Source: a virus (lineage: Duplodnaviria > Heunggongvirae > Uroviricota > Caudoviricetes). Taken from it: a stretch of DNA of 19,302 nucleotides. A program made the position numbers. The stretch is from the IMG/VR virus record IMGVR_UViG_2671180673_000002. The stretch is one strand, 5' to 3'. Shown piece after piece: positions 15,001 to 19,302 of the stretch (position 1 is its first letter; each line of letters opens with the position of its first letter).

Positions 15001-18000
15001 CCACCGAACTGAAGTGCAATTCGGTGATCGAGTTCACTGTCACAGAGGTCAACCACACGACCACAGAGACGGCACTGCCCGGCGTCCCTGAGCCAGATAT
15101 GACGCTTGAGGGAAACACGTGCACTGCCACTGACACGACGCTGTTCACCCTTCAGAATATTCACCCGTCGGGTATTCAGTGTTTTGATTCTGCTCTGGAG
15201 TGTACGAAGCTCAGCCATGTAAAATCCCCGTCATATGGCAATCAGTAAAGGAAATAAATATGTCATCGAAAAACCGTACCCGCAGAACCACAACCCGCAA
15301 TATCCGTTTCCCCAATCACATGATTGAACAGATCAACATCGCCCTTGAGCATAAAGGGTCCGGTAACTTTTCAGCGTGGGTTATTGAAGCCTGCAGGAGA
15401 AGGCTGGCAACAGATGCAACGCATCTGCGCCCGGCCAGCATGACAAATAACGAGAAATGAACGTTCGGTTACAGGAGCAGGTACCCACTGTCCTCCAACA
15501 ATATTTCATCTTCATATCCGACGGAACAATACTTACCCTGCCGGGATGTACAGAATAACAACAGAGTGATAATTAATTTCTGATGAAATAATCAGTGTGC
15601 AGAAGGACTAAAGATAAACGTTTTCTTCACGCCTTTACACGGCCTGTCCTTCTCAAATCGCCATTTTGCCATCGCCTTTACAACCTGCTCATCAAACAGA
15701 TGGTGCGGCTCTGAACGAATAAACTCAATTCGGGTGACAGTACCATCAGCACCAATATCAAACCTCACATCAACCCGTCCCTTTATATAATTTGCCGCTG
15801 CATAGGCCGGATATTGTGGTAATGCCTTAACCAACTGTCGGGGCATATCTGTTTTATGTTGCGTACAGCCCATAACCAGAGAAGACAACAAAATAATTAA
15901 CGGAAGATTTCTTTTCATTTTCATTCCCCGCACAGATAAGAATAAGTCTTATTCTAACAATGCCGCCCTGTCGGTCATCAATCCTCTGCTTAATGGCAAC
16001 GACAATTATCCGACTTAAATCACAAATCAGACACATGACATAACAGGGCTTGCGAGGTAACACATCGTCCTGTTTCTTCCACCATCGCACCGGACTGGCG
16101 ACTATGAGGGGACAACGCCGCGCTCCGTTAACGCGGTAAACCCCGGTGTGTATCGTTTTTGATTATCCCCGCACACTCGCGCAGAGGAGTCTCCCTGTCG
16201 GGCTGCGGTCTCTGTTAATGAGGGAATACAGCGACGATACGGCGCATCAGCAAAACTTAGTTCAGGCACTGAGTGCGGATATAGTCCTGTGCCCCTTCCA
16301 GCTGCTTCTGCATTGTCATCAACCGTTCTCTGAGGATGAAATAATCCCGTTCAGCGGTGTCTGCCAGTCGGGGGCCGGTTGCATTATCCACGCCGGAGGT
16401 GCCGGTGGCTTCACGCACGGTACCGGAGCAGGTGGCGTTGATCCGCAGGCGCTTACGACCAGCGGCAACATCAGCACGCAGAGTTTCATTTTCAGCTCTC
16501 GCATCGGCTAATTCCCTCGAGTATCTGGCATCAAGTTCAGCGACATCACGCTGGCGTATCTGCATATCAGTAATTGTCGCGTTCGCCAGTTTCAGCTCAC
16601 TGACTTTTTTATCGCGCTGCGCTTTGTAGGTGATGGCGTTATCGCGGTAATGATTCAGCCCCAGACTAAGCACACCACAGGCTACCAGCAGGACAATAAT
16701 CACCACACACAGAACACGGTTCATATCACCACCAACGGATTGCCCAGACCAGAACAGCAATGGCCACAATACGAATGGCAAATGCCATTGCCCGAATAAG
16801 TTCAGCACTCATCTTTTTAAAGTTCACGATTTCAGCGCAATGACCAGTTTTGCCAGCCCATACAGCATCGGAGACACAGCAATACCAACAGCCACCCACT
16901 TAATAGCAAAAGCCAGCGCTCTGCTGATGTCATCAGTCACTGTCACCCCAGCAGCCCCGACGAAGACAACATCACCCAGGCGAGGGACAGAAAAAGAGCA
17001 ACCAGCATTAGTGAAAATGAAATACCGACAATCACACACAGGACCTTTGCCGGCGTTATGAGTTTGTCTGACATAGCTACCCCTTAATTGCCACAATTAA
17101 CTGGGATACTACCCATAAAAAAGGGATGCTCCAGACCAGCAAAAATTTCCAGTTTGGTAATTGACTAATCATGAGTCGCAACTCCCTAATCAGTTTGCTA
17201 AAATCAATCAAGGCAGCCTCCCATAGCTTACTGCCATAAAAACAAAACCCCGCTTGCTGCCAACAAACGGGGTTTTTACTTTTATTCACTTACATTTTGC
17301 CAGTTCGCAGGATTTCGTGTTATCCGTCCGCCTTGGCCAACGTCATTTATTAGCAAAATATTCTGCTTATCTGTCGATTCCCCAGCACGCCAGCGCGCTC
17401 TCCTGGTCACGACGGGATACCTGACCGTAACAGTTATTTGAGCGAATACGGCAGTCCCTGCCACCGTCCTTAATCCACCAGCGAATCGCCTCACACGCTC
17501 CCCTGCGATCACCTGCATTAATTCGTTTATAAAACGTCGACGGAAAACACTTACCGGGGCCAATGTTGTACGGACAGAATGACGCGATCCCCGCTTTCTG
17601 GGGTTCACTCAATGGCACTCTGATGTTTTTCTCCACCCATGCCAGCGCCTTATCACGCTCAATGGCGTTAACCCGGTCGCATTTTTCCTTCGACAACTTC
17701 ATGCCCGGAACGACAGGTTTGCCATCCACCAGGATGGCACCGCGGCAGATGGTCCAGATACCCGCGCCATCACGGTATGCCGTGGTGTGGTTACCTTCCT
17801 TTTCATCCAGAAACTGGTCGAGAATGTCAGGCGCAGGCGCACCAGCGGCAATCAGCGCCAGAACGGCAGCCGACAGGCCGTATCTGATTTTTGCGTTCAT
17901 GGATATTTATCAGGATTTATCGGTTTCTGCCCACGGACAGGTTTATCTGTTCCGGTCAGTGACTTAAGGTTGTGATTCCGGAGGAGTCTTCAGAGAACCA

Positions 18001-19302
18001 GTAATTCTTCCCGGTAGCTTTCCTTTGTAGGTTATCCATACATTCTGCGCCTCTAAAATTACGGGGCGCTTTTCCGGCGACTGCTCATCCCCTTCACATA
18101 ACCCGGCAGCAACATCCAGGAAGACCTGTCTGATGCTCCTTCTGGCTGCTGCCTCATAAAACTCCAGCGCGGCACCTTCAACACGGTCCAGCGAGATGTC
18201 CAGGTCAAAAATTTCACCGTCAAAGCGTTTTTTGTCCCGTAACGCTAAAGTTACCGTAACTTTATTCTCAAAATTGCGGATCCCTTTCACAATCAGTTNA
18301 TAGTTTTGAGTCATTGAATTACTCTCCCCGTGCAGCCTTACGACGGTCCTCTCTGATTTTGAAATACAGGTTAGTCAGATATGTCAGCAGCCCAAACAGC
18401 AGACTCCCCAGCACGCCTATTGCCGCCCACTGAGACGGGGAAACCCTGTCCAGCAACTGCAGGAACCAGTAGCCCGTTCCCACCGCTGACGTGGTGTATG
18501 ACACACCTGTTGTGATTTTTTCCATCTGGTACATACCCCGTCTCCCGTTATCCGGAAGCTGACAACAATAAAAAAAGCCACCAGTTAAGTACTGATGGCT
18601 CTGATAACTCATGCAGGCATCTCAGACGACCCACTGACACTACCGGTGAGTTTAACGATACCTTCCATTTGACTGGCTCACTTTTTATGATGATGCCGGT
18701 GCATTTATCTCCAGCACCAGACTTTCTATCTCAACGCCATACGCTGCATTTTTGGTAATATCCGTCAGCGTCAGCGCATTCAGCCCCAGTGTCAGACTGT
18801 CTTTTATGACCTGGAATGCCGGGCCAGCCACTCCATTCAGTTTCGGAGTAACCGTGGCACTGCCGGCGGTGAACACCAGCTCCAGCGTCTGCCAGTCGTT
18901 ACTGTAATTCCCGAACTCGCCCAACTTTGTGTTTCCGGCTTTCTTGTGATGCATCAGATTCAGTTTGCCGTCTGTGGTCTGGGTGAAGAACGACATCAGG
19001 AACGGGTTACCAGTCCCGGTCATCGCCACGACGTCAGGTAACGCTACATCGGTATACAGATAAATTCCCAGACCGAACTGGTTGTTGGTCAGTGCGCCTG
19101 ACAGTCGAAACTTACAGCTCAGTCTGCCACCCCGTGTCAGCAGGGAGACTGCGTCATCCACCGGATGCATCAGGGACCAGGTTTTATTGCTCTGCTTGGT
19201 AACCTTAAACACACCATCTTCCAGCGCAACACTGCCGCCGGTGATGGTCCAGCCCGTCTCAGTGGGCGGCAATAGGCGTGCTGGGGAGTCTGCTGTTTGG
19301 GC

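Follow-up and report, generated by a model that had tools for sequence, protein, structure and literature searches.

Introduction

The closest described relatives of the lysis cassette analysed here are those of phage 21 (S21/R21/Rz/Rz1), of the Shiga toxin (Stx) phage 933W (S-R-ant-Rz/Rz1, as also in H-19B) and of the Qin prophage of Escherichia coli K-12 (essQ-ydfR-rrrQ-rzpQ/rzoQ). In phage 21 a pinholin with two transmembrane domains (TMDs) is combined with a lysozyme that is tethered to the membrane by a signal-anchor-release (SAR) domain. Pinholins of this kind are defined by a GxxxSxxxG face on TMD2 and no gene is known to lie between S and R in phage 21. The corresponding cassette is described here for a stretch of 19 302 nucleotides (nt) of a tailed E. 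coli phage (IMG/VR record IMGVR_UViG_2671180673_000002), which is referred to in its full length as the window. It consists of the holin gene S, the gene ydfR, the endolysin gene R and, further downstream, the spanin genes Rz/Rz1, all on the minus strand (Table 1).

Stx-phage holins of this type have been classed as P21-family pinholins (PMC10462455), and an added positive charge is the distinguishing feature of the S21-71 antiholin (PMC9636201). The endolysin of 933W has been handled by the Young laboratory under the name "phage 933W SAR endolysin", with a construct from the Kuty 2011 dissertation (PMC9239132). In the same paper SAR domains are characterised as about 18–20 weakly hydrophobic N-terminal residues, about half of them Gly, Ala, Ser or Thr, with basic residues before them.

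A preliminary description of the window had placed a pinholin/SAR-endolysin system with an extra gene between holin and endolysin at positions 17367–18534. These limits are exact on the minus strand: 17367 is the last base of the endolysin stop codon and 18534 the first base of the holin codon Met1. The arrangement is not unusual. It is already known and annotated as the standard layout of K-12 Qin, and besides K-12 it is annotated in Stx1a/Stx2c phages and in E. coli genomes by the hundred; the cassette as such is therefore little news as a discovery. The present analysis makes it probable that the cassette follows the phage 21/933W pathway, with ydfR as an optional, cytoplasmic accessory gene that occupies a slot at the S/R junction and whose product is likelier to modulate RNA metabolism than to be a core lysis factor.

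Results and Discussion

Holin and endolysin

The product of S matched the Pfam family PF04971 ("Bacteriophage P21 holin S") with E=9e-33 and 112.5 bits (cutoff 26) over profile positions 1–63 of 64. Its PHROG matches were holin families, and it is identical to 933W S at 70 of 71 residues and to K-12 EssQ at 79 %. Hydropathy, calculated for 17-residue segments, was at most 0.54 over residues 7–28 and up to 1.99 over residues 36–56, that is, TMD1 is weakly and TMD2 strongly hydrophobic; the motif G40xxxS44xxxG48 is present. The likeness to the phage 21 pinholin in the preliminary description is borne out by these results. Of the dual-start motif claimed along with it, the two in-frame start codons are there (Met1 at 18532–18534 and Met4 at 18523–18525), but the N-terminal extension, M-Y-Q, contains neither Lys nor Arg, so that the positive charge added in the antiholin of phage 21 is missing; the extension of K-12 EssQ reads MKSM. 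The lack of this charge bears on the mode of antiholin action, not on family membership.

The Shine–Dalgarno (SD) sequence of S gave an anti-SD duplex of −7.4 kcal/mol. The SD sequence of Met1 is covered by a 6-bp hairpin (CUUCCG-GAUAA-CGGGAG; 18536–18553, minus strand), which resembles structures described in connection with start choice in lambda S and S21; folding of the holin start region was no more stable than that of shuffled sequences (z=−0.28).

The endolysin matched Pfam PF00959 (Phage_lysozyme) with E=1.3e-23 and, among the structures in the PDB, R21 (3HDE/3HDF; E=8e-16 for 3HDE) and RrrD (4ZPU); its PHROG match was likewise endolysin. Its triad, E35-x8-D44-x5-T50, aligns position for position with that of the SAR endolysin R21 (3HDE), and the protein shares 93.3 % identity with 933W R and 88 % with K-12 RrrQ. 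The N terminus reads MNAKIR-YGLSAAVLALIAAGAPAP; the SAR stretch comprises residues 7–24 (codons at 17829–17882), contains Ala, Gly or Ser at 10 of 18 positions and is preceded by K4 and R6. With a best 19-residue Kyte–Doolittle mean of 1.74 the N terminus is weakly hydrophobic, and its composition agrees with the SAR features quoted above (PMC9239132). By hydropathy it is predicted to be of the membrane type and not cytoplasmic, and the SAR-type assignment made at the outset is supported. The pairing of a pinholin with a SAR endolysin is likewise supported by family membership and by homology to 933W and R21.

The ydfR gene and its product

The 116-codon open reading frame (ORF) between S and R, for which DUF1327 had been offered as a guess, proved in a profile search to belong to that family (Pfam PF07041, E=7.2e-42, 142 bits, cutoff 25). 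For all three products the Pfam matches greatly exceed what chance would give. Five PHROG families, all of unknown function, were matched; residues 1–72 are 82 % identical to K-12 YdfR, and relatives are named "YdfR family protein" by NCBI. Codon 6 contains an ambiguous base ("n" at 18299), and all relatives have GAA (Glu) at this codon. In an AlphaFold2 (AF2) model based on a 37-sequence alignment, the N-terminal domain (residues 1–72) has the order beta-beta-beta-alpha, with pLDDT (predicted local distance difference test) values of 85–94 for residues 11–70; the tail (residues 73–116) is conserved, but its pLDDT values are 51–59. The protein is predicted to be soluble and mildly acidic (isoelectric point, pI, 5.5) and to have no transmembrane (TM) segment. 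For the N-terminal domain, the ratio of nonsynonymous to synonymous substitution rates (dN/dS) was 0.22–0.46 among alleles down to 53 % identity; ydfR is therefore a real gene under purifying selection. The preliminary description had made its reading depend on conservation of the ORF in relatives. Where present, the gene is conserved and under purifying selection, but 933W, for one, is a close and functional relative that lacks it, and the gene is thus accessory.

The YdfR family comprises 320 clusters at 90 % identity, with 88 representatives among 1.84 billion proteins, and is almost entirely from Escherichia/Shigella. Identical or nearly identical proteins fall into clusters of 945, 1129 and 981 members at 98–99 % identity. 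The tails are of mutually unrelated types: that of the window, that of K-12, a long coiled-coil extension, or none. One and the same YdfR allele was found paired with MKSMDK, MYQMEK and MDQMEK holins, and allele-specific co-adaptation of holin and YdfR was rejected because the alleles reassort freely. Relatives that consist of the N-terminal domain only (72–76 aa) are located in the I/J interval (L005, Pfam-confirmed) and the M/L interval (L137) of the tail genes, beside terminase genes (L138, L139) and upstream of unrelated holins (L140). A sequence search of solved structures gave no match for YdfR at E≤1, a Foldseek search of BFVD with the better AF2 model none at E≤0.001, and searches of PADLOC and NCBIfam none; with P0166 as query, no viral locus was found.

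K-12 YdfR is expressible and soluble, binds the catalytic half of RNase E through its first 72 residues, as judged by two-hybrid and co-purification experiments, and co-purifies with DNase-resistant nucleic acid/RNA (PMC13232886, 2026). In the literature search this report was the sole functional account found, and no link of ydfR to lysis was found. A role of YdfR as a defence moron was set aside: the gene has no promoter of its own, almost no reads are seen in uninduced K-12, and PADLOC gave no match.

In many relatives a convergent ORF of 70–110 aa lies directly 3′ of the DUF1327 gene; it has no counterpart in the window. Examples are found at 3244–3540 of L008, 3807–4079 of L002 and 3479–3739 of L011, and in L003–L005, L136–L138 and L140. 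The matching PHROGs (phrog_25324, 10490, 2572 and 2411) are of unknown function. Partner group and DUF1327 subtype vary together, and pairs of this kind are located at several positions of phage genomes that are unrelated to one another.

The S/R junction and the endolysin leader

The ATG of ydfR stands 4 nt past the TAA of the holin and is served by the SD sequence GGGGAGAG, which lies inside the last holin codons. In 933W the same SD sequence, at the same 4-nt spacing, serves the endolysin directly. The 4-nt gap between holin and slot gene also occurs in Qin, Evi, mEp460, YYZ-2008 and L011–L015; of the 87 IMG/VR loci with a DUF1327 gene, 81 show it. As the preliminary description had noted, the endolysin of the window has no obvious SD sequence: the best anti-SD duplex in the 30 nt before its ATG was 0 kcal/mol, as against −8.1 kcal/mol for ydfR and −6.2 kcal/mol for Rz.

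An AU-rich, SD-less leader, CCTGATAAATATCC-ATG, precedes the endolysin in every slot-bearing cassette, and the sequence further 5′ is variable. The leader is identical in EcPF7, Evi, mEp460 and YYZ-2008 and partial in Qin. When IMG/VR was scanned for it, 93 loci with enough upstream sequence were obtained; a DUF1327 gene lies between S and R in 87 and a gene for a coiled-coil module in 5, and the remaining one was a chance match. Among the 92 relevant loci no endolysin leader without a slot gene was found; L096, which had come up as a candidate, was rejected as a chance match in an unrelated contig of 34 % GC. The distance from the ydfR stop codon to the endolysin ATG is 63 nt in the window and in 13 IMG/VR loci, and 50, 55, 321 or 343 nt elsewhere; in Qin the two codons overlap (ATGA). 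No special RNA fold of the spacer between ydfR and R was detected in comparison with shuffled sequences (z=−0.18).

In L022, L044, L074, L129 and L132 of IMG/VR the same 4-nt slot after the holin is taken by a gene without a DUF1327 domain. Its product is the counterpart of the coiled-coil/"RRDEQFAAFYDYC" module found at the C terminus of the long (176–329 aa) forms of YdfR; the slot proteins are therefore modular.

As judged from these sequence comparisons, the S/R junction contains a fixed recombination slot that ydfR fills, and the gene takes over the ribosome site that is used by the endolysin in 933W. Its insertion shifts the endolysin from a coupled start driven by an SD sequence to the SD-less leader, and would uncouple and probably lower translation of the endolysin. 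Candidate routes for initiation at the SD-less start are S1-dependent initiation on the AU-rich leader and, at short spacers, reinitiation after the ydfR stop codon.

Occurrence of the cassette

Compared with annotated E. coli chromosomes, the 3.1-kb region reached up to 99.7 % DNA identity. Related sequence was found in 5022 of 5426 complete genomes, and at least 80 % of the region was covered in 753. The RefSeq labels of the genes are class II holin family protein, YdfR family protein, lysozyme, three hypothetical proteins and lysis protein. Among isolated phages, vB_EcoS-611R1 carries a YdfR that is 100 % identical and vB_EcoS-640R1 one that is 99 % identical. The holin family was found in 434 phage records and DUF1327 in 101. 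Sorted by organism name, in two separate searches that do not amount to a controlled comparison, DUF1327 was present in 41 of 47 records of Stx1a phages and 15 of 17 of Stx2c phages, and in 2 of 124 of Stx2a phages, which have the same holin family. A large share of E. coli strains carries ydfR inside the lysis cassettes of lambdoid prophages.

Proposed mechanism and alternative explanations

By homology, Q-antiterminated transcription through two terminators would express S, ydfR, R, four small membrane ORFs and Rz/Rz1. The holin would accumulate in the inner membrane until TMD1 leaves the bilayer and oligomers of TMD2 form small pinholes, whereupon the membrane potential would collapse. The endolysin, exported beforehand by the Sec pathway and kept inactive by its SAR domain, would be freed by depolarisation, refold and cut the peptidoglycan, and disruption of the outer membrane by Rz/Rz1 would come last. 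YdfR may act in this sequence as a late-expressed modulator of RNA metabolism rather than as a regulator of lysis at the membrane. We favour this role for four reasons: K-12 YdfR is reported to bind RNase E and to co-purify with RNA, the domain also occurs elsewhere than in lysis cassettes, YdfR alleles reassort freely with those of the holin, and functional relatives lack the gene.

Several points weigh against this account. That the holin forms small heptameric, depolarising holes which pass no proteins, and that the endolysin is held at the membrane and freed on depolarisation, we infer from homologues. Since the longer form of the holin has no extra positive charge, its antiholin regulation may differ from that of phage 21. 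The account offers only candidate routes for translation of the SD-less endolysin, the start of which lies 50–450 nt past the preceding stop codon. Binding to RNase E is known for K-12 YdfR, which was overproduced and has a C-terminal tail unlike that of the window, and overproduction altered few transcripts (PMC13232886). Between distant alleles, tail residues 73–116 are conserved at least as well as the N-terminal domain, which hints at a specific partner. Finally, a fixed position and tight coupling to the holin, as seen for ydfR, would also be expected of a dedicated lysis regulator.

Such a regulator would be cytoplasmic and set the timing of lysis, either like an antiholin, through the basic C-terminal tail of the holin, or through the endolysin before its export, in a role like that of T4 RIII or P1 LydB. 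In E. coli phages the ydfR gene always lies in the S/R interval, with its translation coupled to that of S, the mildly acidic protein (pI 5.5) could meet a basic holin tail, and a partner is hinted at by the well-conserved C-terminal tail. The Keio ydfR deletion was, moreover, a hit for envelope leakiness in a screen with chlorophenol red-β-D-galactopyranoside (CPRG; PMC3879167 supplement), but the kanamycin cassette could account for this phenotype: we suspect a polar effect in which the cassette drives the downstream SAR endolysin gene rrrQ. As neither 933W nor about three quarters of the phage records with the same holin family contain ydfR, as one YdfR allele occurs with three different holin N-terminal alleles, as relatives of the N-terminal domain are found in tail and terminase regions, and as YdfR has no TM segment, we regard a dedicated lysis-timing regulator as unlikely.

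The slot proteins might also act at the level of the message. It is conceivable, though quite unlikely, that YdfR and the coiled-coil module bind late mRNA and/or RNase E and so control translation or stability of the SD-less CCTGATAAATATCC-AUG endolysin message. If they did, they would set the dosage of the SAR endolysin and the timing of lysis, which would be a new lysis control at the RNA level and not at the membrane.

A further explanation would make YdfR one half of a mobile two-gene module, resembling a toxin/antitoxin or defence pair, with the convergent 70–110-aa protein as the other half and a solo remnant in the window; such a module could combine an effector expressed in the prophage with a partner expressed late. 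In Evi, EcPF7, L011/L014, L003–L005, L136–L138 and L140 the DUF1327 gene has the convergent ORF as its immediate 3′ neighbour, at several unrelated genome positions, and the group to which the partner belongs varies with the DUF1327 subtype, with conservation at the protein level down to 32 % identity. However, the partner is missing from the window (63-nt spacer) and, among the 87 IMG/VR loci, from at least 37 with spacers of 50–63 nt, and ydfR is nevertheless intact and under purifying selection; the partner groups have no detectable relation to one another; and PADLOC gave no match for YdfR, Pfam none for the partners, whose PHROGs are of unknown function. Such a module is distinctly improbable.

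An ordinary cleavable Sec signal peptide in place of the SAR domain, which would make lysis control unlike that of phage 21, is suggested by the short hydrophobic core (about 15–18 residues), the basic residues before it and the Ala-x-Ala-like sites (AGA, APA) after it. Each of these candidate sites is, however, directly followed by Pro, and Pro at +1 blocks signal peptidase I. The endolysin also shares 93 % identity with 933W R, a protein treated as a SAR endolysin, its composition fits the SAR features, and a P21-type pinholin would be an odd partner: it is unable to release a cytoplasmic enzyme and would be pointless for an active one that is freely secreted. Cleavage of the N terminus is therefore very improbable.

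That the 116-aa ORF arose by chance or is a remnant without function, as its ambiguous base, the low-confidence predicted tail and the many fragments or fusions among its database relatives might suggest, has negligible likelihood against a Pfam score of 142 bits, the large clusters at 98–99 % identity (945, 1129 and 981 members), the dN/dS of 0.22–0.46, the strong SD sequence with fixed coupling to S and a K-12 orthologue that is expressible and soluble.

YdfR is best regarded as an accessory slot protein with a possible function in RNA metabolism. If it is true that it tunes endolysin expression or late host RNA decay, it could affect the timing of lysis and hence the release of phage and Shiga toxin. 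The fixed 4-nt slot, the takeover of the endolysin ribosome site and the conserved SD-less leader make its role genetically testable.

Other features of the window

Table 1. Features of the lysis region, listed in the direction of transcription.
Feature	Position	Strand	Evidence or remark
Intrinsic terminator, interval between esterase gene (nanS-p type) and holin	18574–18602	−	12-pair stem and T run, operon sense strand
Holin S, 71 aa, class II/P21-type pinholin	18319–18534	−	Pfam PF04971, PHROG holin families, hydropathy
SD sequence GGGGAGAG within the last holin codons	18322–18329	−	Anti-SD duplex −8.1 kcal/mol
ydfR, 116 aa, DUF1327	17964–18314	−	Pfam PF07041
Untranslated spacer between ydfR and endolysin, 63 nt	17901–17963	−	Last 14 nt (17901–17914) are the leader CCTGATAAATATCC
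Endolysin R, 177 aa, T4-lysozyme-type muramidase with SAR-type N-terminal domain	17367–17900	−	Pfam PF00959
Strong intrinsic terminator directly 3′ of the endolysin, before the low-GC insert	17244–17276	−	15-pair stem and T run
Four tightly packed small single-TM ORFs, interval between endolysin and Rz	16726–17172	−	PHROGs of unknown function
Small single-TM ORF, 31 aa	17077–17172	−	
Small single-TM ORF, 43 aa	16943–17074	−	
Small single-TM ORF, 40 aa, GTG start overlapping the stop codon of the 43-aa ORF	16824–16946	−	
Small single-TM ORF, 28 aa	16726–16812	−	
Rz i-spanin, 155 aa	16257–16724	−	Pfam PF03245, E=7.5e-50; PHROG Rz-like spanin
Rz1 o-spanin lipoprotein, in another frame inside Rz	16319–16504	−	Pfam PF06085, E=1.7e-21; lipobox (..VVSAC)

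The spanins are of the embedded two-component type, in which an i-spanin with an N-terminal TMD (Rz) is combined with a lipoprotein (Rz1) encoded in another frame of its gene; the lipobox Cys of Rz1 is present and the mature part is proline-rich.

The four small TM ORFs are a second accessory insert, at the site where 933W carries ant. The 40-aa and 28-aa ORFs have the motif RA(L/M)AFAI(K/R) in common. All match PHROGs of unknown function, and three of the four are labelled "hypothetical protein" in RefSeq; no Pfam match was found for the two that were tested and no NCBIfam or PADLOC match for the group. Given their position in a lysis cassette, a role in lysis or exclusion at the membrane is conceivable. 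The GC content of ydfR (0.47) and of the insert between R and Rz (0.456) is lower than that of S, R and Rz (0.53–0.55), as would be expected of acquired accessory modules.

The block S-ydfR-R is bracketed by two strong intrinsic terminators on the sense strand (18574–18602 and 17244–17276). The genes distal to R, that is, the small ORFs and Rz/Rz1, therefore depend on antiterminated transcription, and the terminator at 18574–18602 must be passed by Q-antiterminated late transcription. Beyond this terminator, 5′ of the holin, lies the 3′ part of a nanS-p type SASA esterase/DUF6645 gene.

Elsewhere in the window terminase, protease-capsid, portal, tail chaperone, tape measure and tail L products are encoded, and the window is therefore assigned to the late operon of a lambda/HK97-like siphovirus prophage of E. 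coli. The interval between the lysis cassette and the terminase contains, on the minus strand, genes for a protein with a TonB C-terminal domain (15592–15933) and an HNH endonuclease (14853–15218), both with identical RefSeq annotation in the closest genomes. An Rfam scan of the whole window gave no match.

The last 50 nt of the window (19253–19302) are a perfect inverted copy of 18390–18439 within the holin gene and stand where the closest genome (L001) continues the nanS-p esterase gene. This has the appearance of a contig end that is folded back or chimeric, not of biology. Bases given as "n" occur at 442–517 and 18299; together with the inverted copy they indicate an assembly of draft quality.

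Comparison with known systems

For small phage proteins that touch RNase E (phiKZ Dip, T7 gp0.7 and T4 Srd), and for small extra proteins in lysis cassettes (T4 RIII, P1 LydB and the Mu gp25 releasin), the resemblance to YdfR is at most a possible functional analogy. With phage 21 the window shares the PF04971 holin, the combination of a two-TMD pinholin with a tethered lysozyme and, residue for residue, the catalytic triad; it differs in an endolysin that is only distantly related to R21 (E=8e-16) and in a holin extension that adds no positive charge.

The nearest sequences, among them NZ_OZ547038, vB_EcoS-783R2 and vB_EcoS-611R1, have the gene content and the 63-nt spacer of the window, with a DNA identity of 99.7 % over 3056 nt, and show no substantial difference except at its chimeric last 50 nt. 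Qin of K-12 has the same gene families in the same order, with ydfR 4 nt past the holin stop codon on the same SD sequence and with ..ATAAATATC-ATG before the endolysin; the identities of holin (79 %), YdfR N-terminal domain (82 %) and endolysin (88 %) are those given above. In Qin, however, YdfR has 103 aa and an unrelated C-terminal tail, and its stop codon overlaps the start codon of rrrQ (ATGA), so that the two are coupled, whereas 63 nt separate them in the window. The Qin holin starts with MKSMDK and thus with a Lys, the spanin is of the DUF2514 type, and no small TM ORFs lie between R and Rz.

The 933W cassette shares the upstream nanS-p esterase and the type of Rz/Rz1 with the window, in addition to the holin (70 of 71 residues) and the endolysin (93.3 %). 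The first residues of its endolysin are MSRKL in place of MNAKI, the endolysin follows the holin stop codon by 4 nt on GGGGAGAG, and ant occupies the interval between R and Rz in which the window has four small TM ORFs. Since 933W has a nearly identical holin and endolysin and yet no ydfR, YdfR is an optional insert and not a core part of the lysis machinery.

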